Assembly: GCA_002774635.1 (NCBI GenBank) | Contig: PEXU01000047.1 | Coordinates: 1-52,591, forward strand | Reading direction: 5' to 3' | DNA from: Candidatus Kerfeldbacteria bacterium CG08_land_8_20_14_0_20_40_16 | GTDB taxonomy: Bacteria; Patescibacteriota; Patescibacteriia; UM-FILTER-42-10 | DNA length: 52,591 nt | Shown: piece after piece, positions 8 to 37,764 of the stretch | Position numbering within the stretch: position 1 is the first letter of the stretch | Layout: each line of letters opens with the position of its first letter | Position numbers and translations under genes: made by a program | Notes under the pieces: model-generated | Told to the model about the DNA's origin: nothing | Seen by the model: the letters and a program-made list of their open reading frames with translations, nothing else | The model's database searches: none

Positions 8-1079
8 TGGAATTAATTTGGTTGGTAAATTGTTCATTTACAAGTAAATTTTGACTTGAATCTAATAGCTGCTATAGCCCATTTACGCCAAGCATTGGGT
101 GCGTTAACTGTCCTTGCCTTTCTTCTAATGTAACTGTTTACCGATTCCATTACGTTGACTGTTGTTGGCAAATTAAATTCAGGATGTTGCAAGTAGCTTC
201 TGTATTCAGGGAAATGTCTCAAAAGTTCTCGGACAACCATTCTCATTCGTCTGGGGCATAACGGATGTTTTGCGAGTATAGCCAACCGTCTACAAAGAAC
301 ATTCACTCGCCGTTTTGATATTTCAGTAATCGCCAGTTTTGCTGATTGATAAATCTTTTCCCTGATCTGCCTGCCGGGGGTAGATGCTCTTTTGCCCCTC
401 ATCTTTTGGAGCATGCTAAGTAAGTGGAAATGGCATCTTTGAATAATCCAGCCATTTTCATAGGCAATTGCATCAAATCCTCTAATTCCGTCAGAAACAA
501 CAGCAACTAAGCGGTTTTTCACGGATAGGGGAAGTCCATTGATAACCACGTTCCAATCAGTAGCATTCTCTTTGCCAGATTTTAAGACCGGATCAAATAC
601 TGTTACCGTTTCTGAATTAGTTGATTTCACCGATAAGCAATACAATGTCCAAAATCCGTTTTTAAACAACTGCCATTCGGCGTCAACGATTAATATTAGT
701 TTCTGACCACGGATTCGGATAATTCTTCGGGCATTTACTACAGCCTTTAATTCATTGTTGAATCTTTTGTAGACAGCGTCAATTGATAGACGGGAATGCA
801 AAGCAATCTGCTTAACAGAGAAACCGTGATTAAATACTTTGTTTAAATGATTTCTCGACCTACGTAAGGTTCTCCGGCCTGGCTTGGCTGGATGTACTCT
901 CCATGTTTTTCGGCAAGCGGTACACTGCCTGCGCTTGCCGCCAAAACGAATTATTTTAGCGGCACAACATTTACTTTTCTCATGTATTAGTTTCATACAA
1001 GAGAAAAGTAGCAGAAAAAGTCAATATTTACTTGTAAATGAGCTAAAAAATTAAACTGTCACCAACCGAATTTATTCCA
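8..1079 (-). mobile_element. Complete small IS element (~1.07 kb) carrying a single transposase ORF. Terminal inverted repeats read inward TGGAATnAATTnGGTTGGT ... TTTACAAGTAAA at both ends. Family not resolved (IS1595-like by size and N-terminal zinc ribbon).
   Basis: Left end 8-48 and the reverse complement of right end 1027-1079 share two conserved blocks (17/19 in the outer block, plus TTTACAAGTAAA inside). A single 320-aa ORF sits between them. Confidence 0.7.
34..996 (-). CDS. DDE-type transposase with an N-terminal Cys-rich zinc-ribbon
   Basis: 320 aa; N-terminal CC...CxxC motif, strongly basic, and flanked by the terminal inverted repeats. Confidence 0.65.
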   Translation of the reverse strand: MKLIHEKSKCCAAKIIRFGGKRRQCTACRKTWRVHPAKPGRRTLRRSRNHLNKVFNHGFSVKQIALHSRLSIDAVYKRFNNELKAVVNARRIIRIRGQKLILIVDAEWQLFKNGFWTLYCLSVKSTNSETVTVFDPVLKSGKENATDWNVVINGLPLSVKNRLVAVVSDGIRGFDAIAYENGWIIQRCHFHLLSMLQKMRGKRASTPGRQIREKIYQSAKLAITEISKRRVNVLCRRLAILAKHPLCPRRMRMVVRELLRHFPEYRSYLQHPEFNLPTTVNVMESVNSYIRRKARTVNAPNAWRKWAIAAIRFKSKFTCK

Positions 1080-1638: not shown

Positions 1639-3102
1639 ATGGCCAAAAGAAATCTGGTACTGCCGGGCAATCCCCGCTACCAGCCCGTTTCACTGGTACC
1701 TTACTTTGGGTATGACAATTTGGTGCATTCGTGGATTTGGGTGGAATCGGCGCTTCTGAAAGCGCTCGCGGATATCGGTTATCTGCCGGATGATGCCGAA
1801 GCAGCTTTACGCTTAAGAGGCAGAGCGGGTTGGCAGACTCATCTGGAAAGCTGCATTACCACGACCAAGGTTGATTATCGGGAGAAAACGGCGAAAAGAA
1901 GAACTAAGCACGACATTCGGGCGCTGGTATTACTGATGCAAGAGAATCTTCCGCCGGAACTGAGGCGTTGGGTTCATTTTGGCGCTACGTCCTTTGACAT
2001 CCGCGACACGGCAGCAATCATTGATTTCAAAGCGGCGTATCAGAAAGTGACCGCTCCTACGGTTCGGAAGCTGGCTCTGGCAATAGCGGCAAAAACGGAG
2101 GAGTTTGCCGGAAAAATTCAGATCGGGCGAACTCATGGGCAGCACGCTCTGCCGATAACGGTAGGGTTCTGGCTGGCAACTATTTTGAACCGCCTGATGA
2201 CCGCTGGCAGAAATCTTGAGTTTGATTCCTTATCGCTCGTCGGTAAGTTCAGTGGAGCGGTCGGTGCTCACAATGCCCAGATTGGATTAGGAATCGAAAA
2301 AAAGTATCAGGAATGGCGCAGCGGCAAAAGTTTACCCGATACTTTCGAGGCATTTGTGCTGGCAAAACTCGGCTTAAAACCGGCTGCCGTTTCTACCCAG
2401 ATTCTACCGCCGGAGCCACTCTCCCGCTTTCTGTACAGTTATTTCCAACTTTCCGCCGTTTTAGCCCAGTTAGGCAACGATGGGCGCAATTTACAGCGCA
2501 CGGAAATTGCGGAAGTAATGGAAGTGTTTGAGAAAGGTCAGACCGGCTCGTCTACTATGGCGCACAAACGCAATCCGATTACTTTTGAAAACACTGCCGG
2601 CATCTTCAAAATCGTAAAGGCAGAATTCCTAAAGGTGATGGACTGCATGACTTCAGACCACCAGCGCGATCTGGTAGACAGCTCCGTAATGCGGGAATTT
2701 CCCGGCATTGTAGTGTTGGTTCAGTACCAGCTGGAGAGCCTGCTGCGCTTAATTCCGAAAATGGTTGTGGACCCGGAAGCGCTGAAGCGCAACTTCCAGC
2801 TTTCCGCCAACGTGATTCTGGCAGAGCCGATTTATTTGGCGCTGATTCTGGGCGGCTACCGGGGTGATGCGCACAAGTTTGTGAACCACACGCTTACCCC
2901 GCGTGCTAAAGAAAGCGGAAACCAAATAATCGTGGAACTGGAAAAAATGGCAAGACGTAGCCAGACGCTTCAGAAAGTACTGGAAAACATTCCCAAAGAC
3001 GTCCTTCGGTTACTGCATGATCCGCGAGAATATGTCGGTTCGGCATCGGCCGAAGCATTAAGAATTGCTTCAGGGGCTCATACACAGTTCTCTGAACATT
3101 AA
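1639..3102 (+). CDS. purB: Fumarate-lyase superfamily enzyme, most likely adenylosuccinate lyase (PurB-like)
   Basis: GSSTMAHKRNP signature loop of the aspartase/fumarase/ASL family. The purA remnant elsewhere in the window supports a purine role. 487 aa is longer than canonical PurB. Confidence 0.6.
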   Translation: MAKRNLVLPGNPRYQPVSLVPYFGYDNLVHSWIWVESALLKALADIGYLPDDAEAALRLRGRAGWQTHLESCITTTKVDYREKTAKRRTKHDIRALVLLMQENLPPELRRWVHFGATSFDIRDTAAIIDFKAAYQKVTAPTVRKLALAIAAKTEEFAGKIQIGRTHGQHALPITVGFWLATILNRLMTAGRNLEFDSLSLVGKFSGAVGAHNAQIGLGIEKKYQEWRSGKSLPDTFEAFVLAKLGLKPAAVSTQILPPEPLSRFLYSYFQLSAVLAQLGNDGRNLQRTEIAEVMEVFEKGQTGSSTMAHKRNPITFENTAGIFKIVKAEFLKVMDCMTSDHQRDLVDSSVMREFPGIVVLVQYQLESLLRLIPKMVVDPEALKRNFQLSANVILAEPIYLALILGGYRGDAHKFVNHTLTPRAKESGNQIIVELEKMARRSQTLQKVLENIPKDVLRLLHDPREYVGSASAEALRIASGAHTQFSEH

Positions 3103-10127: not shown

Positions 10128-10429
10128 CTTGTAGAAAATAGTGAGTTAGGTATAGGATGTTAGCTTGTAGGCGGGTAGAAAGAGAACGAAAAGCGAAAAA
10201 CGTAAAAGGCAAAATCACAGATGAAAATTAAAAATTGTATTATCAGTTAAACAAAGATAATAGAAAGTTAAAAATCATTTTTCGCTTTACATTGTAATTT
10301 TTCATTTTCAGTTTTTAATTTTTCACTAAAGTAATACTCGCTACAACCAAAAGCCAAAAAGCGATAAAAAACGGATGACTCATTAAAAAGCCGTTTTTTA
10401 TTTGACATCATTTATCAAACGTATTATCC

Positions 10430-14127: not shown

Positions 14128-14232
14128 CATAATTTACAATTCTCAATTTTCAATGACTACTTTCTTAATTGTTTGAAAATTGAATCATTGAAAATTTATT
14201 GAAAATTGAAAATTGATAATTAAAAATTGCAT
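14128..14232. repeat. Copy of the dispersed AT-rich hairpin repeat (AATTTTCAAT / ATTGAAAATT family)
   Basis: Left arm caattctcaattttcaatg; right arm cattgaaaatttattgaaaattgaaaattgataatt. Confidence 0.7.
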
Positions 14233-17531: not shown

Positions 17532-18848
17532 ATGCCGCTCAAAATAATTGTTGGTTGTCAAAAAGGCGATGAAGGTAAAGGTAAGCTTGTTGATCGAGAA
17601 CTTACATTAGGTCATTTTACCTGGAACGTGCGTTTTCAAGGTGGGCGCAATGCCGGCCATACCGTGCAAGTCGGAGATCAACAGATTATCCTGCATCTGA
17701 TTCCTTCGGGAGTGCATCACAAGAATGTCCAATTGGGACTAGGCCCGGGTGTCATTTTTGACCCACAGGGGTTCTTTGAGGAAGTAGATGAACTCAAATC
17801 TTTTGGGATTGAAGTTGAAGGGCGTCTCTGGGTTTCCCCGGCTGCCAAGCTGGTAATGCCCTGGGATAAGGTTCTGGACGGAGCAATCGACCAAGTTCGG
17901 GCTGAAGCTCAAGGTAAAACGGTTCAGGCTGGCGGTGGAGTAGGAACCACTAATCGCGGGATCGGTCCGGCTTATGCCAATGCCATTGCCCGGGACGGTC
18001 TGACCGTTGCCCATCTGCTGAATCCGGAAATTCTCCGCCAACGGCTGGGAACAGTGGTGCCGGTCATCAATCGGATACTCAATGCTTTCGGCTGTCCGGA
18101 AACTAGCGTATAGGAAGTATTTGATCTGTACGCGCCGCTCGGAGAATGCTTACGGAAATTTACTAAGCCTCTTTCTCAAGGATTAGTACAATCACTTGAG
18201 AAAGATCAGTGGATTTTAGTGGAAGGTGGTCAGGGTGCTTTCCTAAGTGTTGACTGCGGGGTCAGTTATCCCTGTTGCACTTCTTCCATTACCACCTCTA
18301 ATGCCGTTTTTGCCGGGTTAGGATTGCCGCTGGTTCCCGAGTGGATCGGTCCGATCGTAGGCGTGGTCAAAGCTTACCAAACTGCCGTCGGTAATCATCC
18401 CATGCCCACTTTGATTGGTGGAGAAGTGGAAGAGAGAATCCGCCAGCGCGGAAAGGAATTCGGTGCTACCACCGGTCGTCCTAGGCACTGTTGCTGGATT
18501 AATGGCTTGGAATTGGTAAGGGGGGTCTGGATTAACGGATGCACGGAAATCGTCATTACTAAGCTGGATGTTCTGGACGAAGAACCAGCAATTCCGATTG
18601 CGCGGGCGCTACGCTACAATAACTATGAGATTCATGAACTGCCTTCGACTTTGGAGGAATACCTAAGATGTGAGCCGGTTTATGATCAAGCTATGTCTGG
18701 TTGGCAAAAAGATACCAGTGGGGTTAGTAAATTCTCTAACCTTCCCGAAGAAGCCTGGAACTATCTCAAGCAACTGGAAATCATTGCCGGCGTGCCGATC
18801 ACCGGCGTTTCTAACGGTCCTCAAAGGGATCAGTTCTGCGTCGCGTGA
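17532..18848 (+). pseudogene. purA: Adenylosuccinate synthetase purA interrupted by a single in-frame TAG at 18111-18113. Both halves and the intervening segment are in one frame and PurA-like throughout.
   Basis: N-terminal half has the GDEGKGK P-loop and GGRNAGHT; after the TAG the same frame reads EVFDLYAPLGE...LVEGGQGAFLSVDCGV...GTTGRPRHCCW...ITKLDVLD. TAG is used as the stop of three other genes in the window. Confidence 0.75.
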
Positions 18849-18922: not shown

Positions 18923-18958
18923 ATCAGTAGGCGAATTTGGCCAAATTCGCCTACTGAT
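18923..18958. repeat. Perfect 36-bp palindrome ATCAGTAGGCGAATTTGGCCAAATTCGCCTACTGAT (GTAGGCGAATTT family)
   Basis: Seen directly in the sequence. Confidence 0.75.
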
Positions 18959-19009
18959 AGGAACGATGTCCCACGTACCAAAGTAGGGTATTTGTTCAGT
19001 GGAACGAGT

Positions 19010-19100
19010 ACCCTTTTTAAATTTCCAATTTCCAATTCTCAATTTTCAAATAAGTTCCAAATTCCAATGTTCCAAACATATTTATAATTTGGAATTTTAA
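19010..19100. repeat. Copy of the AT-rich AATTTCCAAT/AATTTTCAAT repeat family
   Basis: atttccaatttccaattctcaattttcaaat ... ttataatttggaatttt. Confidence 0.6.
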
Positions 19101-19159
19101 TAAAAAAAGGGTATAAGCACAAAGTGCTCTACCCTTGTAAATTCCTCCTTTCGAATGAA

Positions 19160-20065
19160 CTATCCCGTCCTTTGATAAACAGGTTCACGTTTCTTCTTAA
19201 AGGCAGTGAGCCCTTCCGCATAGTCCGGATGTGGTGCGAGTTCTTGCAGGTAAACCGTTTCGGAAAATTCCAGAGCTTCGGTAAGGGTTTTAGCATTCTG
19301 GGCACAGTGGGTTAGCACGCTGGTCGCCTGATTCAGGACAAAGGAGCTCAACTTAGCGGTATGCTGCTGTACATCGGCAAGCGCTTGGGCGACGGTAGTT
19401 TCGTCAATGTGCAGGACTTCTCCAAAGAGACTGGAAATTTTAGGTAGTTCCGCAACTGATCTGAAATCCAGTTGCTCAATGAGATTTTCCAGCGTGCCGG
19501 TAAAAGTCTCGTCAATCAGCCCCATAACGCGCATATCCTCCAGTTGCCAGGGTTCCTCTCCCTTCAGAATTTTACCTGTCAGCAGAAACCGGATTGTGCT
19601 TGTGATGTCCTTTGATAGGCGGGGGAAAACTGCCAAACCGAACGGCGGATAGCAAGCCAGCTTAATCTCCGGAACTCCGAAATACAGCGTTTTGGGATTC
19701 AAGGCGATTACCTTCCGGCAGGCCCGGACCAGTTCCGCTCCTCCGCCTAGACACTTGCCGGAAACAATAGCGACGGTAGGAAGGGGAAATTCAGCAACGG
19801 TCCGGCAGAGATTGTTGAAAACAGGAAGCATTTTTCCCACCTTCTCCGGAAAATGTTCGCCAATATCCGCTCCGGCGCAAAAATACTCTCCTTCACTGGC
19901 GAGCACCAATAGGTCGAATTCCTTGATCGGGAATTCCATCAGCAGAAAGTGGGATAGTTCTTCGCACATCGCCTGGTTCAAAATGTTTAGCGGCGGTCGC
20001 TTAAGCAGTAAGACCGCATTTCGACCATATGGTTTGAGTTCAGTAAATTGCAAATTCATCCTCAT
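19160..20065 (-). CDS. Enoyl-CoA hydratase/isomerase (crotonase) family protein
   Basis: Crotonase-fold motifs (FCAGADIGE, GGGAELVRACRKVIA); GC-richer than surrounding genes. Confidence 0.65.
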   Translation of the reverse strand: MRMNLQFTELKPYGRNAVLLLKRPPLNILNQAMCEELSHFLLMEFPIKEFDLLVLASEGEYFCAGADIGEHFPEKVGKMLPVFNNLCRTVAEFPLPTVAIVSGKCLGGGAELVRACRKVIALNPKTLYFGVPEIKLACYPPFGLAVFPRLSKDITSTIRFLLTGKILKGEEPWQLEDMRVMGLIDETFTGTLENLIEQLDFRSVAELPKISSLFGEVLHIDETTVAQALADVQQHTAKLSSFVLNQATSVLTHCAQNAKTLTEALEFSETVYLQELAPHPDYAEGLTAFKKKREPVYQRTG

Positions 20066-20118
20066 ACTCCTTAATAAGTTAATAGGACAAAAATTTCGGT
20101 TGTCAGAACGGGGAAGGG

Positions 20119-21255
20119 CTACGATTCTTGAGGTTTTCCCAGCACCGCCTCAAACAGCTCTTCATTCATGGGATGACCTTCTGCCAGCAACTGTCGGTAC
20201 TTAATGAAATCAATGACATTCGAGCCGGTGATTTTCTTGGTGTTGAAGGCAGTGAATCCCAGAGAACCTTCGCCCTGCATGTTTGCTGCTAGCCAGTGCC
20301 GGTTGGGAAGTTTATTCTGGTCCCACCCGGATTTTTTCTTCTGCCGGATACCGTCAATAGATTTCATCAGACAGCCCGAGAACAGGTTGATAAAGGTCCA
20401 GACGATGCGGTTGACTGCGGTATCGAGCTGAGCGGAATCATATACCACTTTTTCCATCAGACCTTTGGCATGCTGGATTTCGTTGTGTCCTGAGAGGCGT
20501 TCGCCGAAGACAATTCTGCCGTTCTCTATCCATTGGTCGGTGATGACCAAGGGGTTGGTGATGAATTTTCCTTCCAGCTTGAGTACTGGTACTGCCTCGG
20601 TGATTAATCCCAGCCGCAACATCTTGTAGGCAGACCACATTTCGCAGGAAACGCAGCTCCACATTGCTTGCTCAAGGGGTAACAACCAAGGCAGAAAGTC
20701 AGTAGAACCGCCGTCTGGTGCGCTGCCATGACGAGGACCGGCTTGTCCGAATATAGCAGTGTCAGCGGCAATGGTCAGATCGCATGCCATGCCAATTTCC
20801 TGACCGCCAGCTACGCGCATGCCGTTGACTCGGTTGATGACGGGCTTTTTGCAGTTTAGAATGGCATCCACCATCGCGATGAAAAGGTCCATGTACTGAC
20901 CGTATTCTTCCGGCCGGCCGGAGTAATACTCGGCGTATTCCTTGGTGTTGCCGCCGGTGCAGAAAGCCTTGCTGCCCATGGCAGTGAAAACCACTGCTAC
21001 CACACTGCGGTCCATTGAGGCGCGGTAGAACCCGGCGATTACTCCTTTCACCATTTTCGTGGTGTAGGAATTAAGTTGCTCCGGGTTGTTCAGAATAATC
21101 CAGGCGGTGCAAAGGTCTGGAACTACCAGTCCTTTGTCGTCCATTATCGGGCGTAGTTCGTACATTACACCCGGTGCTTGATCGCTGAATAGCGATTCGT
21201 CAAAGAGATTATGGTCTTTCAACTCATGATCTCGTGGTACCCAGTCTAGTGACAT
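20119..21255 (-). CDS. Long-form crotonase-superfamily enzyme (378 aa; MenB-like or ring-hydrolase BamA/Oah-like; subfamily not resolved)
   Basis: FCTGGN...GQAGPRHGSAPDGGSTDFLP crotonase core with N- and C-terminal extensions. Confidence 0.5.
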   Translation of the reverse strand: MSLDWVPRDHELKDHNLFDESLFSDQAPGVMYELRPIMDDKGLVVPDLCTAWIILNNPEQLNSYTTKMVKGVIAGFYRASMDRSVVAVVFTAMGSKAFCTGGNTKEYAEYYSGRPEEYGQYMDLFIAMVDAILNCKKPVINRVNGMRVAGGQEIGMACDLTIAADTAIFGQAGPRHGSAPDGGSTDFLPWLLPLEQAMWSCVSCEMWSAYKMLRLGLITEAVPVLKLEGKFITNPLVITDQWIENGRIVFGERLSGHNEIQHAKGLMEKVVYDSAQLDTAVNRIVWTFINLFSGCLMKSIDGIRQKKKSGWDQNKLPNRHWLAANMQGEGSLGFTAFNTKKITGSNVIDFIKYRQLLAEGHPMNEELFEAVLGKPQES

Positions 21256-21455
21256 GTTTTACTCCCTTCTGTTTTTACTAACTGATTGGTGATTTTTTGA
21301 TTGTATTTGGTTGTAAAAGTTCAAATTTGTATTTAATAATACAAGTTTTATATCTTAGCATAAGGAAAAGGGGAATTCAAATCTTGACTTTGTTTCTGGT
21401 TATATGATAGTGTGAAATTACAGATAAATGGCGTTCTCGGACGTCTATTTTTTGT

Positions 21456-21500
21456 TTAATTCTCAATTATCAATTCTCAATTTACAATCAATTTTCAATG
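21456..21500. repeat. Left arm of the AT-rich hairpin repeat; it contributes the ATG of the four-helix-bundle gene
   Basis: aattctcaattatcaattctcaatttacaatcaattttcaATG. Confidence 0.65.
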
Positions 21501-21863
21501 AAACAATTTCCAAACAGGTATGATTTAGAAGATAGAACAGCTAATTTTGGCGCTGATATCATATTATTTTGTAAAAGAATTGTACAGGACGAAATCGCCA
21601 AACCCATTGTAAAACAGCTAATTCGTTCGGCAACAAGCATTGGAGCAAATTATATGGAAGCAAATGCCGCAAGTTCAAGAAAAGATTTTAGAAATAAGAT
21701 ATACATTTGCAAGAAAGAAGCTCAAGAAACAAAACATTGGCTGAGAATGATGTTGGTCTGTTTACCGGATAAGAAAGAAAAGATAAATAAACTACGTGGA
21801 GAATGTCAGGAATTAACGTTAATTTTTCAAAAAATAACCTCGTCATTGAAAATTAAAAATTAA
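21498..21863 (+). CDS. Four-helix-bundle protein (23S-rRNA-intervening-sequence protein family)
   Basis: Characteristic LIRSATSIGANYMEANAASSRKDFRNKIYICKKEAQETKHWL motif; both gene ends lie inside the repeat arms. Confidence 0.7.
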   Translation: MKQFPNRYDLEDRTANFGADIILFCKRIVQDEIAKPIVKQLIRSATSIGANYMEANAASSRKDFRNKIYICKKEAQETKHWLRMMLVCLPDKKEKINKLRGECQELTLIFQKITSSLKIKN

Positions 21864-21925
21864 ACATTCACTGAAAATTGATAATTGGAAATTGAAAATT
21901 TGTTTTTATTGTAAATTTGACAATT
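21845..21925. repeat. Right arm of the AT-rich hairpin repeat; it contributes the stop codon of the four-helix-bundle gene
   Basis: cattgaaaattaaaaattaaacattcactgaaaattgataattggaaattgaaaatt. Confidence 0.65.
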
Positions 21926-22125
21926 TATCCAAAAATAGAATAGGATAGGAATTACAACTAAATAACTAATTTTAGCCATGAAACTGCAATTTAAGTACAA
22001 TCTGATGAATTCCAAAGATACCCAAGGAATCAGGGATGTTGCCGTATTATACGGTAATCTCGCTTGCCCGGGCAGTTTTAGGCTAATTTTAGGCAAAATG
22101 TAATGTAATTTAGTTATTATCCTAG

Positions 22126-22150
22126 TACTGCCCCGGCAAAAGCCGGGGTT
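22126..22150 (+). terminator. Rho-independent terminator
   Basis: ccccggcaaaagccggggttttt. Confidence 0.65.
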
Positions 22151-22158
22151 TTTAAGTA

Positions 22159-22186
22159 GTAGGCGAATTTCGCGAAATTCGCCTAC
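22159..22186. repeat. Palindrome GTAGGCGAATTTCGCGAAATTCGCCTAC (third copy of the GTAGGCGAATTT family)
   Basis: Seen directly in the sequence. Confidence 0.75.
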
Positions 22187-22216
22187 AAAACCGTTCCCAA
22201 ACTGGAGGAAACAACC

Positions 22217-23410
22217 ATGATCAAGAGAACAACCAAAATATTCTACCTTGTCACCGGAATCAGCGAATTTTTCGTGGCTTTTCATTTTGGCACCTACGTG
22301 CTGTTCTTGCTGTCGCACCAGCTGACGCTTTTTGAGGTCAGCCTGGTAAACATGGTTTTTATGACCACCATGTTCTTATTTGAAGTGCCAACCGGTGCTA
22401 TTGCCGATATCTTTGGCCGAAGATTCTCTTATCTTCTGTCTTGCCTGGTCACTGCCGCCGGATTCCTGTTTTACGGATTTTCGAGCACCTTGGCCGGATT
22501 TATGTTAGCGGAAGCGATTCTGGCCTTGGGAGCAACCCTTACTTCCGGAGCGTTAGATGCTTGGTTTGTGGACAGTCTGAAATTCTACGGCTACCAGGGG
22601 TCGTTTCACAATTTCTTTGCCCGCCAGGCAAGGATTCTGAATGGAGCAACCATCTTTGGCGCTTTGGCCGGCGGTTACTTAGGCCGTTTGAATCTCGCTT
22701 ACAATTGGTTTGTAGCTGGATTCGGATTTCTGCTGGTAGCTTGGCTGGCCTCGCGGTTGATGAAGGAGGAATACTTTCAACCGAATGGAAACGGCATAAA
22801 GGGCATTCTGTCTGATTTTCGGGAAGTAGCCGGCAGCTCTTTCCACTATGGTAAGAGCAGTAAGGCATTTGTCTTGCTGGTTCTAATTGGCGTGGGAGTG
22901 AGTATTGCCACTATGGCCCCTAATATGCAGTGGCAGCCGGTTTTCCGGAGGTACTTTAATGATCCGGCGCTCTTTGGCTGGCTTTGGGCGGCCATGTCCG
23001 TGGCGGTAATAATCGGAAACACCCTAGTTCCTTGGCTGGCTAAGAAATTACCAGGCCAAAAATGGGTCTTTGCTTTAGCACTGCTGGTGATTGGAGTAGG
23101 GGTGATTATCACCCCTTGGGCTTCCGGATTACTGATCACCCTGTTGTTCTTCCTGTTTCATGAAATGGGTCGGGGAGTGCTTAGGCCCAGCCTGGATGCT
23201 TATTTAAACAGGATTATTCCTTCTAATTGGCGGGCCACCCTCCTCTCAATTTATTCTATGACCACCACCGGCGGAGCGGCCCTGGGACTACTGATAAGCG
23301 GTTATTTAGCAGAGCGCTACTCGATTCCGCTAACCTGGTCTCTGGCCGGGGGTTTGTTGCTGCTACTTATCCCCATCTCCTTGAAGCTCAAGGAAGAAGG
23401 AAAAAATTAA
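22217..23410 (+). CDS. MFS-type transporter (12 predicted transmembrane helices)
   Basis: Hydrophobicity pattern and a GRRF-type loop motif (ADIFGRRFSY). Confidence 0.7.
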   Translation: MIKRTTKIFYLVTGISEFFVAFHFGTYVLFLLSHQLTLFEVSLVNMVFMTTMFLFEVPTGAIADIFGRRFSYLLSCLVTAAGFLFYGFSSTLAGFMLAEAILALGATLTSGALDAWFVDSLKFYGYQGSFHNFFARQARILNGATIFGALAGGYLGRLNLAYNWFVAGFGFLLVAWLASRLMKEEYFQPNGNGIKGILSDFREVAGSSFHYGKSSKAFVLLVLIGVGVSIATMAPNMQWQPVFRRYFNDPALFGWLWAAMSVAVIIGNTLVPWLAKKLPGQKWVFALALLVIGVGVIITPWASGLLITLLFFLFHEMGRGVLRPSLDAYLNRIIPSNWRATLLSIYSMTTTGGAALGLLISGYLAERYSIPLTWSLAGGLLLLLIPISLKLKEEGKN

Positions 23411-27189: not shown

Positions 27190-27295
27190 TCTCAATTTTC
27201 AATTTTCAATTTACAATTTTCAAGTACGCCATTGAAAATTGAATCATTGAGAATTTAATGGAAATTGCAAAATTGATAATTGAAAATTATTGATT
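27190..27295. repeat. Copy of the AT-rich hairpin repeat (caattttcaattttcaatttacaattttcaag / cattgaaaattgaatcattgagaattt...aaattgataattgaaaatt)
   Basis: Inverted arms read directly from the sequence; shares the GAAAATTGATAATTG core with the other copies. Confidence 0.7.
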
Positions 27296-27857: not shown

Positions 27858-27887
27858 GCTCTAGTCAAGAAGTAATAGAATTAACTC
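27858..27887 (+). promoter_or_regulatory. Promoter TTGACA-18-TAGAAT driving the cobalamin riboswitch
   Basis: ttgacagctctagtcaagaagtaatagaat. Confidence 0.5.
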
Positions 27888-27899
27888 ACCTTAACAATT

Positions 27900-28140
27900 G
27901 AAAGTTTAATCAGAGAGAAAACAGGGAACACCGGTGGCTCCCTCGTCAGACGAGGGGGGAATCCGGGGCAGACCCGCTACTGTGAGTTCTGAACGAAGTG
28001 AAGAAATCACCTCGAGCTTAGTCGAGAGGTGATTATTCCCCAGCTCAGAATAAGCCAGAGAACTGAATCTCTCTTGAGAAAGTCTTCTTTACTTTCTTCG
28101 CGGATAGAGAAAGGAAGGGTCTAATTTTTGCCTTCCTTGA
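27900..28140 (+). ncRNA. Cobalamin (B12) riboswitch with terminator-type expression platform
   Basis: AGGGAACACCGGTG core, B12-box-like CCGCTACTG, AAGCCAGAGAACTG (cf. AGCCAGGAGACCTGCC), and a terminal hairpin ggaagg...ccttcc + ttttttt. Confidence 0.7.
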
Positions 28141-34580: not shown

Positions 34581-34899
34581 GTTTTTTAATTGCATGATTA
34601 CTGTTTTTGGAGATAAAATAAAAATCCTCCCACACCATTGACCCCATTAGAGATTTCCATAATCAAACCTTAGTATATTCTTGGTTTGAATCAGATAATT
34701 TGAAATACTTAGGTTAATATTCATTTTATCTCTAACGGGATTGACAAATTCTACAAAGTATGATAGGGTGATCTGTTACACTTACCTGTTTTTTAAACGG
34801 GTTTGCTCGTAACGCGTTCGTTGAAAATTGGTTACAAAACCTAGCAATCTTGTAAGTAATGTTGATAAAGAAATAAAAAAAGAGAGAAAGGAGGCAGAA

Positions 34900-36732
34900 A
34901 TGCCTACGAATCCAACAGTTCCAGAAACCGGTGAAGCTTCTACTTCCCCAAAAACCAAGAGGAAGAAAAAAGGCCTTTTCCTTTGGGCTGAAATCTTAAG
35001 GTGGGTGCTTTTCGGACTGATTGTTCTAATTAGCCTCATCTCAAGCCTAAGCTCTGGTAAAGCCGTAGACCTGATCGTGGCCTTGGTGACAATTATTATT
35101 TCTGCTGCCGTGTTGTGGGTTTTAGTTCCGATTCTGGTCAGGAGAATGGCGGACCAAGGATTGTTTTTTCTGCGGGTTCCGGAAATGAGAGCCGCGCTAA
35201 TTCTGTGCGACAAAGTAATCCACAAAATCCTCATTTCTGCTTCCGAGAAACATCGGACAAGGTTTGATGGATTAGTGACGGAGAAGGGGGTTAAGGGAGT
35301 AAAACTACAAGTACTGGAATCCGGTCAGGGGCTGGTTTGGATGGGAGTACCCTGGAAGTACCAGCGGTATGAGTGGTATGAGAAATCCGACGAGGAAAAA
35401 AATCCCGAGATTGATCCTCAAACTCTGCTCGTACTTTCCGAGCGGATTTTCGATTTTACGCCGCCCGACGTTGATACTGCCGAACCGATAGAGATCCATG
35501 CCAAGTTGACGGTTTACTTCTATATCTATGACCCTTACAAAGCGCTTTTCGGAGTGCGGTACTACCTCGAAGCCCTTGCGCTGGAAATTGCTTCGCGTTG
35601 GCGCAAGGTCATATCTCTACTGCACTATTTTCAGTACATCAGAGCGGAAGAAGGCAAGTCGGATCTTAAGGGCAAAACAGTGGGACAAGTCTCGGCACTT
35701 ATTATGGAGTCAATGGAAGTTGACCCCGAGATTATCAAGTTGGCCCATCGTCGGCTGCTCACTGATTTGTGGCTGGCGGCGATGAAGAAAAAACTCTACT
35801 TCGACTCAGAAGGAAACCTCCAGGAAAACAAAAGAGAAGAAGAAGCGGTTCCCTGGGACATCACCGACCCGCTCGTTTTAGACGGGAAGACTGGAAAGAA
35901 CAGCGAATTCGACGTGTACGACGACTTTACTGCCATGCCTGGTAATCGTGTCTACGTGAAGGACAACGGCGAGGTAAAAGAATCGGTCGATGGTACCACG
36001 GTAAACCTGAAGCCTCTGAAGCCTCAGCCCGGTGAACAAAATCCGGTGGTCGATCTTGTTCACAAGGTCGTATACACCTACACCCAAACATCTGAAGGAA
36101 AAAAAGAGGTGAAAAGGGTGTTTTACAAACTGGGCATTCCGCCCAGCAAAGCTGTCCGCCGGATTTTTGAAGACTGGGGAGTCGTGCTCAAAGACGTCGA
36201 AGTCACTGACATCGAGCCAAAAGAAATAGCCATTAGAGAAGCTCTGTCTGAAAGACTTAAGGCCAGAGCCGCGGCCATGGCTGTGAAAGAAACGGCCGCG
36301 GGTCATAAAGCCAAAGACATTCTGGAAGGAGAAGGAGTAAAACAGAGGACGATTCTGGAGGGAGAGGGTCAGAGAGAGGCAAGGAGACTAGCGCTTGTCG
36401 GAGATGCCGAAGGGTTTACGGCACAAATAAAAGCCCTTGGACTTTCTCAAGGAAAAGAAGCAAGCATTGTTCTAATTGCCGAGCAAATGCGGAGAATCAC
36501 CGAAAAAACCCAGATGACCGTAATGGCTGGTAGTGGCGCAGGTTGGACCGATCTTTTCGGAAGCATTCCCCTCATAAAAGACCTCTGGTCAGGGAAGCCG
36601 CAAACCTCAGAATCCTTCATCGGCACCTTATCCAGCATGTCAGAAGCGGATCTGGCAAAGGTGAAAAGTGAACTTGCCAGAATCGATAGCAGCGTTGAAA
36701 AAGAAAAGCAGAAAACTGATAAAACTGAATGA
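34900..36732 (+). CDS. SPFH/band-7 (flotillin/YqiK-like) membrane protein; start taken at the Met preceded by a strong Shine-Dalgarno site
   Basis: aaggagg-7nt-ATG at 34900; N-terminal transmembrane helices; SPFH-like core; C-terminal Ala/Glu-rich flotillin-type repeats. Confidence 0.55.
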   Translation: MPTNPTVPETGEASTSPKTKRKKKGLFLWAEILRWVLFGLIVLISLISSLSSGKAVDLIVALVTIIISAAVLWVLVPILVRRMADQGLFFLRVPEMRAALILCDKVIHKILISASEKHRTRFDGLVTEKGVKGVKLQVLESGQGLVWMGVPWKYQRYEWYEKSDEEKNPEIDPQTLLVLSERIFDFTPPDVDTAEPIEIHAKLTVYFYIYDPYKALFGVRYYLEALALEIASRWRKVISLLHYFQYIRAEEGKSDLKGKTVGQVSALIMESMEVDPEIIKLAHRRLLTDLWLAAMKKKLYFDSEGNLQENKREEEAVPWDITDPLVLDGKTGKNSEFDVYDDFTAMPGNRVYVKDNGEVKESVDGTTVNLKPLKPQPGEQNPVVDLVHKVVYTYTQTSEGKKEVKRVFYKLGIPPSKAVRRIFEDWGVVLKDVEVTDIEPKEIAIREALSERLKARAAAMAVKETAAGHKAKDILEGEGVKQRTILEGEGQREARRLALVGDAEGFTAQIKALGLSQGKEASIVLIAEQMRRITEKTQMTVMAGSGAGWTDLFGSIPLIKDLWSGKPQTSESFIGTLSSMSEADLAKVKSELARIDSSVEKEKQKTDKTE

Positions 36733-36792: not shown

Positions 36793-37764
36793 ATGTTTGT
36801 AGTAATGATTGTCGTGCTGATGGTGTCTGCTGCTATTGTGATGACGTTTTTGCTCATCGGAAAAGCGGCAACACCAAGCCAGAGAAGAACGGCGGCTGAA
36901 ACGTCTCCTACAGATGTGACACAAAATCCGAATTGGCTTAGTCGTCGCTGGAAAAGGATTCGCGGCAATAAACCCTTCAAAGAATGGATGCGCACGTGGG
37001 GGACCTTCGGATGCTGGGTGTCTTTCTGGGCCGCCGAAATAATTTTGGTCGAGGTGAACAATCCGGGGTTCTGGAAGAAACTGTTGTTCGGCTGGGACTT
37101 TATGACTGTTGGCTTCTGGGTGATGCACGTTATTTTCATTTGGACCTTGGGAACCTGGGGTTCGGGGAAAAGCAAGGGAGCCCGGAAGTTTTCGGTTCTC
37201 CTATGCAACGTAGTATGGATCGGGCTCTTCGTGTTTTTTCAGAGCCAGATCCTAAATATTCCCTATTCTGATTGGTTATTTCGGAATGTGCTAAAAAACA
37301 GTAACCAGTCAGCCACTACGCAGACATACACCACGCCAGCAAACTACGAGAACTATATTGCTAGTCCAGCTCCTGGTATGATAATTGCCGGAGTGGTGCC
37401 AGAGGGTAAAGCGCCGGATGGCTCCTGGAAACTGCAGTATGTCTGCGATCTGAAGCCGGGTGAGAACCTCATTACCATTACCGAGGTAAACGGTCGTATC
37501 CGGGCGAACGGTCGCTACACTCGGTTTGAGAGCGAAAAGCTCTACGCCGATGTAGTGCGAGGCCCTCGCGATTGGGAATCAATTGAGATTTCTGACGAGG
37601 AAAGCCCACTTCGGCTCGCAGTGGGAAACCGACTGGTCCTGATCGCCGGCCCGGGCGAGGTACGGATGACTGTAACCAAGCTGACCCCCTTGTATGCCTA
37701 TATTGAGGCAGAACAGGGCGGTTCGGGAATCGTTCAACTTAAACTAACGGTGAGATCGAGCTAA
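36793..37764 (+). CDS. NfeD-like membrane protein (N-terminal transmembrane helices + C-terminal beta-barrel), probable partner of the SPFH protein
   Basis: Domain architecture and its operon position directly after the SPFH gene. Confidence 0.4.
   Translation: MFVVMIVVLMVSAAIVMTFLLIGKAATPSQRRTAAETSPTDVTQNPNWLSRRWKRIRGNKPFKEWMRTWGTFGCWVSFWAAEIILVEVNNPGFWKKLLFGWDFMTVGFWVMHVIFIWTLGTWGSGKSKGARKFSVLLCNVVWIGLFVFFQSQILNIPYSDWLFRNVLKNSNQSATTQTYTTPANYENYIASPAPGMIIAGVVPEGKAPDGSWKLQYVCDLKPGENLITITEVNGRIRANGRYTRFESEKLYADVVRGPRDWESIEISDEESPLRLAVGNRLVLIAGPGEVRMTVTKLTPLYAYIEAEQGGSGIVQLKLTVRSS

Follow-up and report, generated by a model that had tools for sequence, protein, structure and literature searches.

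A two-gene operon for a predicted BamA-type ring hydrolase and a long-form hydratase in Kerfeldbacteria

Why should a small-genome bacterium of the candidate phyla radiation (CPR) encode enzymes for the hydration and ring cleavage of coenzyme A thioesters, and how did it come by them? The question is raised by contig PEXU01000047.1 of Candidatus Kerfeldbacteria bacterium CG08_land_8_20_14_0_20_40_16, a stretch of 52,591 nucleotides that is called the window below. In line with this assignment (Patescibacteria/Parcubacteria group), eight window proteins are identical to NCBI and UniRef records. The window contains two adjacent genes of the crotonase superfamily. The original prediction, made from the sequence alone, held that this pair is an island of elevated guanine-plus-cytosine (GC) content that was plausibly acquired horizontally, possibly by recombination between AT-rich hairpin repeats on its two sides, and that such chemistry is unexpected in its surroundings. 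The last point is borne out, as the rest of the window consists of housekeeping genes and encodes no CoA ligase, thiolase, acyl-CoA dehydrogenase or benzoyl-CoA reductase. For the origin of the pair we arrive at a different account, which we consider roughly 70% probable: the genes form a two-gene operon under selection, encoding BamA (also called Oah) and a hydratase, that was acquired long ago in Kerfeldbacteria, has been inherited vertically and is partly eroded. Species A denotes the species of the window, and species B, C, D and E are related species compared at the same locus.

Anatomy of the operon and identity of its products

Both open reading frames (ORFs) are read from the minus strand; one spans 20119-21255 and encodes 378 aa, the other spans 19160-20065 and encodes 301 aa. 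Each matches the Pfam families ECH_1 and ECH_2, in agreement with the predicted pair of co-oriented crotonase genes. They are real genes of a single operon, which would be transcribed from a promoter at 21380-21352 to a terminator at 19136-19100. The promoter (21352-21380, minus strand) comprises a -35 element TTGAAT at 21380-21375, a 17-nucleotide spacer and the motif TGnTAAGAT, with the -10 element at 21357-21352. Because its 8 of 12 consensus matches fall below the threshold of our consensus scan, the assignment rests on conservation instead: the element aligns in four species immediately 5′ of whichever gene comes first in the operon, which is bamA in A and C and a gene for a 3-hydroxyacyl-CoA dehydrogenase (3HCDH) in B and D. 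No terminator is present in the 59-nucleotide spacer between the two genes. Downstream of both lies an intrinsic terminator (19100-19136, minus strand) with a 13-base-pair stem and a run of U nucleotides, whose predicted folding energy of -19.3 kcal/mol (z -4.1) was equaled by none of 200 shuffled sequences. The 5′ untranslated region of the operon has no significant structure, and searches of the region against Rfam returned only sub-threshold chance matches.

The start of the hydratase gene can be placed more precisely than the longest reading frame would suggest. The ribosome-binding site AAGGAG at 20072-20067 precedes the second ATG (20059) by 7 nucleotides and the first ATG (20065) by only 1 nucleotide, and other gene callers use the 299-aa form that begins at the second ATG rather than the 301-aa form. 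Therefore, translation most likely starts at 20059, and the gene is taken to span 19160-20059.

The product of the first gene (20119-21255, minus strand; NCBI record PIS42350.1) matches the family model TIGR03200 (dearomat_oah) with 544.2 bits against a cutoff of 464.45, with residues 12-372 aligned to the entire 360-position model (1-360). More than 100 family members, 374-396 aa long and drawn from a wide range of bacterial and archaeal phyla, share 66-77% identity with it, and a good number of them are called Oah by their sources. The protein also retains 149 of the 155 columns that are at least 97% conserved in 141 non-CPR members. By these sequence comparisons the 378-aa protein is assigned as a BamA/Oah orthologue. 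The original prediction had called it unusually long, but given the range of its matches and a model of 360 positions, 378 aa is a normal length for BamA. The annotation itself is not new, as the NCBI record already names the protein correctly as 6-oxocyclohex-1-ene-1-carbonyl-CoA hydratase. No BamA closer than 68% was found in GTDB representative genomes, and hence either the window species or its BamA is missing from that set. An AlphaFold model of the protein was too uncertain (pLDDT 70, with active-site loops below 50) and was left unused.

A core resembling MenB and ring hydrolases had also been predicted, and this is apparent in the data: NCBIfam matches include BadI and MenB, and the best solved-structure matches, among those listed from the PDB, are MenB proteins (E 7e-27). 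The protein might thus be thought to be MenB, the naphthoate synthase of menaquinone synthesis, or BadI, which share the fold of BamA and its related Claisen/retro-Claisen-type chemistry and represent its closest solved structures. However, the MenB matches cover residues 51-230 only, so that ~50 extra residues at the N-terminus of BamA and ~140 at its C-terminus lie outside them, and MenB heads the structure matches because no chain named Oah or BamA is among those listed. Scores for BadI (TIGR03210, 110.8 bits against a cutoff of 467.6) and for MenB (TIGR01929, 97.9 against 342.7; NF005637, 103.8 against 380) are far below the cutoffs, whereas the Oah cutoff is exceeded, and there are no men genes in the window. 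Both identities were rejected, and we regard the chance that either is correct as negligible.

The partner gene encodes an enoyl-CoA hydratase (ECH) that matches Pfam ECH_1 with 78 bits and whose best NCBIfam family, by ~20 bits, is the dienoyl-CoA hydratase Dch (TIGR03189). Its ~300-aa form is represented by just seven protein clusters among 5.8 billion, at 47-71% identity, and two scans of metagenome contigs with the hydratase as query yielded no additional long-form loci. The next homologues, at 28-34% identity, are nearly all annotated as cyclohexa-1,5-dienecarbonyl-CoA hydratase (Dch). Shared invariantly with these Dch-annotated proteins are the catalytic glutamates E111 and E133, the GGG motif G107-G109, A64-G65 and the motif PPLNIL, so that the oxyanion-hole motifs and both catalytic residues are in place, and the gene holds the same order relative to bamA as does its Dch/BamR counterpart. 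The sequence evidence accordingly classes the protein as a rare elongated form whose nearest family appears to be Dch.

At 299 aa, the hydratase exceeds the ~250-262 aa of Dch by about 40 residues and has a 41-aa helical insertion at approximately residues 195-240, in the C-terminal helical part. Its AlphaFold (AF2) model, which is of high confidence (pLDDT 94.9), is matched best by the self-folded crotonase domains of propionyl-CoA synthase, MFE1 and FadB (TM 0.73-0.78, root-mean-square deviation (rmsd) 3-4 Å) and fits the trimeric crotonases poorly (rmsd 10-20 Å). Judging from this monomer model, the insertion may allow the C-terminal helices to fold back onto the subunit to which they belong, as in FadB and MFE1, whereas the C-terminal domains of trimeric crotonases are swapped. 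The long-form hydratase would thereby be a structurally unusual and rare version of the crotonase fold.

Origin and inheritance of the operon

A recent horizontal transfer of a two-gene island, integrated at the flanking AT-rich hairpin repeats, has several observations in its favor. BamA ranks first among the 41 genes of the window both for GC content (0.512) and for GC content at third codon positions (GC3 0.602, z 2.6), and the hydratase (GC 0.499) ranks fifth, against a per-gene mean of 0.426. Arrays of an AT-rich heptamer, (AATTNNC)n, occur on both sides of the pair, at 19020-19075 and 21458-21499. Furthermore, the BamA family is found mostly in non-CPR anaerobes, to which the protein is 66-71% identical, compared with 72-76% to its CPR relatives.

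The arrangement of the locus in related species speaks strongly against such an island. Species B, whose BamA is 76% identical, has the order nrdR, MFS gene, conserved leader, 3HCDH, BamA, ECH, a 140-aa gene, purA, AhpC, superoxide dismutase (SOD) and NifU, with purA on the far side of the pair. Species C (BamA 72%) has ribonucleotide reductase (RNR), nrdR, MFS gene, leader, BamA and ECH, after which the contig ends. In species D (ECH 47%), nrdR is followed by 3HCDH, a divergent 355-aa BamA, a 102-aa ORF and ECH, and in species E (ECH ~50%) the order is GroEL, 3HCDH, ECH. Orthologues of the pair are therefore located between MFS/nrdR and purA in B, beside the MFS gene in C and next to nrdR in D, in the same orientation and with the promoter conserved, and thus do not constitute a recent island. 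The original prediction had named similarly composed orthologues at the same position as the sign of vertical inheritance. Such orthologues are what we find in B, C and D, and they are equally GC-rich in B and C, the two species in which composition was measured.

The pair is richer in GC than the window average but, contrary to the original prediction, not richer than its immediate neighbors, since purA (0.503) and the MFS gene (0.493) equal it. Other GC-rich genes of the window are purB (0.509) and those at 36793-37764 (0.508) and 34828-36732 (0.478), and 7 of the 41 genes have a GC content of at least 0.475. The GC-rich block extends from purA to the MFS gene (17.5-23.4 kb; Mann-Whitney p = 3e-4 against the rest of the window) and is broken by AT-rich intergenic inserts. 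In species B and C the orthologous block is GC-rich as well, with GC3 of 0.54-0.65 compared with 0.41-0.48 for nrdR and RNR. Because this holds although the interspecies synonymous divergence (dS) is ~1.2-1.7, the high GC3 is a maintained property of these genes and not the fading signature of a transfer.

The repeats, for their part, are indeed present on both sides, but the heptamer family is not confined to the borders of the pair: the window contains 12 matches where chance would give 0.05, and the family also occurs in other intergenic regions, with inverted arms at 14131-14228 and 27194-27288 and a weaker occurrence at 10222-10337. The left copy is a one-sided array with a short inverted arm (19020-19095, no strand assigned), inserted in this species between two convergent terminator hairpins. 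One of the two is the operon terminator, and the other is an orphan terminator hairpin (18985-19014, plus strand) that was detected by a terminator scan and has a 41-nucleotide match of 93% identity in species B. There the two hairpins are contiguous, with no array between them, and the hairpin of the 18985-19014 type is located 3′ of the 140-aa gene, an HsmA-like gene (HsmA family match) that is absent from the window species.

On the right, the array is the left arm of a cassette (21452-21911, plus strand) in which a gene at 21498-21863 is flanked by inverted arms at 21458-21499 and 21873-21900. This gene encodes a four-helix-bundle protein of the 23S rRNA intervening-sequence family (PF05635, 60.5 bits; TIGR02436, 79 bits). 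The operon and the MFS gene have divergent promoters, and the cassette is inserted between the two; it is missing from this site in B and C. No heptamer arrays were found at the operon flanks of species B, C and D. Therefore, the repeats cannot have served as recombination sites for the acquisition, and they are later insertions in the intergenic spacers of one species rather than the borders of an island. No integrase or transposase gene lies within 18 kb of the pair, the nearest such gene being 18 kb away. An ultimately foreign origin of the genes remains plausible, but the synteny in B, C and D and the lack of the repeats in these relatives led us to reject a discrete, recent, repeat-bounded island, which we regard as very improbable.

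Comparison of the five species also bears on what the operon looked like originally. The additional gene of B, D and E encodes a generic Hbd-like 3-hydroxyacyl-CoA dehydrogenase, positioned directly 5′ of the pair in B and D and adjoining the hydratase gene in E. Because this gene is found in B and in the distant species D and E, and in B and D lies behind the same promoter, the ancestral cluster probably had three genes (3HCDH, bamA and ECH), and species A and C probably lost the dehydrogenase. Searches of the window with tblastn detected no remnant of 3HCDH or of the 140-aa gene. Likewise, no 3HCDH copy attributable to species A was found among the closest homologues (64-69%), although absence from the whole genome is thereby unproven. 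Three candidates for a relocated copy were rejected, as they come from a different lineage in which the context includes ABC-3, ARMT1, 3HCDH and 4HBT genes, and the remaining candidates either cluster with that lineage or lack the signature of species A, namely recovery from multiple sources and on multiple contigs.

Two observations on this dehydrogenase family are recorded here. Its closest relatives outside Kerfeldbacteria, at 64-69% identity, are encoded at loci L101 (8001-8918), L103 (2462-3379) and L104 (3203-4084), where the context ABC-3, ARMT1-like, 3HCDH, 4HBT-thioesterase and TrmO is conserved. A homologue of 54% identity is annotated as deriving from a metagenome-assembled genome of Aenigmatarchaeota (DPANN).

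We propose the following history. A unit of 3HCDH, bamA and a dch-like gene would probably have arrived in a single, ancient transfer from an anaerobe outside the CPR, and would then have been passed on vertically in a subclade of Kerfeldbacteria, keeping its place next to nrdR/MFS and purA. In the lineage of the window species, the dehydrogenase gene and the 140-aa gene would have been deleted, the heptamer array and the four-helix-bundle cassette inserted in intergenic spacers, and an in-frame TAG gained by purA.

Selection, chemistry and partial erosion

The exact BamA protein was recovered from 22 metagenome contigs, all with the same gene surroundings. They represent one population whose contigs, drawn from nine metagenome assemblies, are 99.8-100% identical at the DNA level. 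This similarity leaves too few single-nucleotide polymorphisms for a within-population estimate of dN/dS, the ratio of nonsynonymous to synonymous substitution rates. Between species, BamA has a dN/dS of 0.11-0.14 and the hydratase one of 0.16-0.21, compared with 0.03-0.12 for the neighboring genes (nrdR, RNR, SOD, NifU, CobA and the MFS gene). Purifying selection acts on BamA and the hydratase, but in a more relaxed form than on their housekeeping neighbors.

It could be argued that the operon is instead a decaying remnant, belonging to a pathway that no longer functions in the window species and consisting of genes that are heading toward loss. The dehydrogenase and 140-aa genes are gone, the purA gene of this locus is interrupted by a nonsense codon, BamA is degenerate in D and missing in E, dN/dS is above that of the neighbors, and six near-invariant residues of BamA are altered. 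Nevertheless, both reading frames are intact, with good ribosome-binding sites, a conserved promoter and a terminator. Values of 0.11-0.21 sustained over a dS above 1 signify clear purifying selection, 149 of 155 near-invariant columns are kept, and the sequence hardly varies among nine metagenome assemblies. We therefore consider a decaying remnant unlikely.

The chemistry to be expected of the pair follows from the known roles of these families. In the benzoyl-CoA pathway, by which benzoate is degraded anaerobically, Dch hydrates cyclohexa-1,5-diene-1-carbonyl-CoA, Had, an alcohol-dehydrogenase-type enzyme, oxidizes the resulting 6-hydroxy product, and Oah/BamA adds water to 6-oxocyclohex-1-ene-1-carbonyl-CoA and cleaves a ring carbon-carbon bond to yield 3-hydroxypimeloyl-CoA. 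The corresponding dch-had-oah (bamR-bamQ-bamA) clusters of the lower pathway occur in Thauera, Geobacter and Syntrophus and were reportedly described by Laempe in 1999, Kuntze in 2008 and Peters in 2007. The ancestral CPR cluster resembles them in that it combined, in principle, a hydratase, an NAD-dependent hydroxyacyl-CoA dehydrogenase and a ring hydrolase. It differs in that its dehydrogenase belongs to the Hbd/3HCDH family, and in the window species this gene has been lost altogether.

Gene order in other organisms agrees with the identity assigned to the two enzymes. A hydratase gene directly 3′ of bamA on the same strand, as in the window, is found at ~15 of 80 non-CPR loci. Of 37 long non-CPR BamA loci, 30 carry a Dch-like hydratase gene within 10 kb, 24 a short-chain dehydrogenase/reductase (SDR) and 6 a set resembling the class-I reductase. 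Judged by sequence, both enzymes most likely keep the ancestral chemistry on alicyclic CoA thioesters, that is, dienoyl-CoA hydration and opening of the 6-oxo ring. The intervening oxidation would then be carried out by an unlinked dehydrogenase or be missing, and the substrate would come from a partner organism or be made by a part of the genome outside our view.

An alternative assignment of function would take the hydratase and the Hbd-like dehydrogenase as the functional core, acting in the metabolism of short-chain acyl-CoA compounds (crotonyl/3-hydroxybutyryl-CoA type), with BamA in CPR as an accessory or acting on a non-cyclic or other substrate. Of the cluster, only the ~300-aa hydratase gene is shared by the five species, and E carries it together with 3HCDH and without BamA. 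Its structural model fits best on domains of FadB, MFE1 and propionyl-CoA synthase, and it misses the Dch cutoff. In addition, a single report describes genes of beta-oxidation type in a CPR genome; it called this capacity unexpected and found no benzoate genes (PMC5220378). However, the window species has retained exactly BamA and the hydratase and not the dehydrogenase, Dch is the best family for the hydratase by ~20 bits and supplies the annotation of nearly all its next homologues, and BamA is too conserved to suggest a new substrate. This assignment appears distinctly unlikely to us.

Several of our results nevertheless count against a selected, vertically inherited operon that retains its ancestral chemistry, and these keep our estimate for it well short of certainty. 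The changes at near-invariant columns of BamA (I126, N141, F250, S293, G330 and N346) number six, where family members have 1.2 on average and 10 at most; BamA of the CPR clade evolves faster than the family norm. In species D the BamA-like protein (locus L095, 2149-3216) has a deletion of ~25 aa, retains only 112 of the 155 invariants and scores 410 bits, which is below the Oah cutoff, and in species E the locus (L096, 1186-3080) holds only 3HCDH and the long-form hydratase, with no BamA. Species A and C have lost 3HCDH, and over the clade as a whole the cluster gives the impression of erosion. Rates of dN/dS for BamA and the hydratase are two to four times those of the housekeeping neighbors, and all of these values are approximate because dS is near saturation. 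The CPR BamA proteins group together in a neighbor-joining tree built without an outgroup, at weak bootstrap values of 34-59%, and for this reason the case for a single acquisition rests mainly on the shared locus.

The remaining objections concern function. None of the genes in the 52.6-kb window encodes a dehydrogenase of the pathway (Had-type or other), a CoA ligase, a thiolase, an acyl-CoA dehydrogenase or a benzoyl-CoA reductase. In this, and in its small-genome CPR host, the bamA locus differs from known BamA/Oah systems. The steps catalyzed by BamA and by the hydratase are not consecutive, and no source of substrate is visible in the window. Finally, the hydratase scores 92.7 bits with the Dch model TIGR03189, which does not reach the cutoff of 292.5. 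This model is narrow, because hydratases adjacent to BamA at five non-CPR loci also fail to reach it, four of them scoring 149-161 bits and the fifth lacking TIGR03189 among its listed matches.

Together, species D and E can be viewed as a series of erosion or of neofunctionalization of the module. As a natural erosion series, the five related species comprise clusters of three genes and of two genes (in two combinations), together with a degenerate BamA in D, the most distant BamA-bearing species of the series. A bolder interpretation is that a subclade of Kerfeldbacteria symbionts keeps a stripped-down module for opening alicyclic CoA-thioester rings without a ring reductase of its own. The module would consist of BamA and a Dch-like hydratase with a novel, self-folded structure, joined in some of the species by an Hbd-like dehydrogenase. 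It might consume dearomatized intermediates that a host produces, run its steps in reverse as an electron sink or act on a related, undescribed substrate. We consider this interpretation doubtful, but if it were true, CPR bacteria would be direct participants in anaerobic aromatic and alicyclic carbon turnover, and environmental surveys of the bamA marker would partly count organisms that are not degraders.

Even on the more conservative account of an old, selected and partly eroded operon, the finding has consequences for how bamA is used. The gene is an accepted marker for anaerobic aromatic-ring degradation (PMC3794298). Our data indicate that the marker can occur outside the classical degraders, here with no reductase within 52 kb. 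A full-text literature search linking CPR, Patescibacteria or Kerfeldbacteria with bamA or oah returned only incidental co-mentions. BamA in CPR bacteria is a known family in an unexpected lineage, accompanied by a rare long-form partner hydratase, and as a conserved gene under selection it would extend CPR metabolism by a capability not reported before.

Neighboring elements of the locus

The purA gene of the window (17532-18848) is broken by one in-frame TAG codon (18111-18113) into segments of 193 and 209 aa. The split is found in all eight of the listed metagenome contigs of the population that cover purA. Identity of purA between species A and B is only 68% (dN 0.255), lower than that of the neighboring genes, and the species B gene is intact and encodes 438 aa. 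The split purA could be a pseudogene or could contain a recoded stop codon. Together with the dehydrogenase and 140-aa genes, it makes up the losses at this locus in the window species.

The heptamer elements have features of interest in their own right. Hairpins of this family that lack a gene share sequence with the ends of the four-helix-bundle cassette, as would be expected of 'empty' derivatives. Species C has one heptamer hairpin at the same intergenic site between RNR and CobA (locus L092, 2288-2361). The family may represent a small mobile element or an RNA-processing element.

A second dispersed element looks like a REP-like (repetitive extragenic palindromic) sequence and is separate from the heptamer arrays. 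It is a perfect palindrome of 29 nucleotides with the structure GTAGGCGAATTT(N4)AAATTCGCCTAC, and its half-sites have four matches in the window against 0.33 expected. One copy, GTAGGCGAATTTGGCCAAATTCGCCTAC, is located at 18927-18955, and a second, at 22158-22186 in the leader of the MFS gene, is present in species B and not in C (no strand is assigned to either). Further copies are found at approximately 2980-3008 of locus L089 and 2900-2925 of locus L097. The copies lie just after terminators or in leaders, at differing intergenic sites in A and B.

At the edge of the window, a 320-aa ORF (34-996, minus strand) has a weak match of 25 bits to Mutator-family transposases. It is bracketed by a 24-nucleotide inverted repeat (34-57 and 1018-1041, with 96% complementarity) at the edge of the contig.

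The MFS gene (22217-23410) is preceded by a leader of ~260 nucleotides (21917-22216) that is near-invariant in A, B and C, exceeding the conservation of coding genes. It contains a promoter of the form TTGACA-N18-TAGGAT, a 41-codon ORF (21978-22103) whose frame is kept in B despite a 3-nucleotide deletion, a 19-base-pair long-range stem that links the start and end of this ORF, and an intrinsic terminator at 22130-22149. Inspection by eye indicates that a segment upstream of this terminator, at approximately 22078-22089, could pair with its 5′ half at 11 of 12 positions. The leader has no Rfam match, and the three available sequences exhibit no covariation. In these sequence features, the leader resembles an attenuator with a leader peptide or a riboswitch not described so far.

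A cobalamin riboswitch is present at 27886-28084, with 38 bits and above the gathering score, upstream of genes for DUF4430 and DUF6580 proteins. It follows the genes for a B12-dependent RNR and a cob(I)alamin adenosyltransferase, which suggests that this region is a cluster for B12 uptake and usage.

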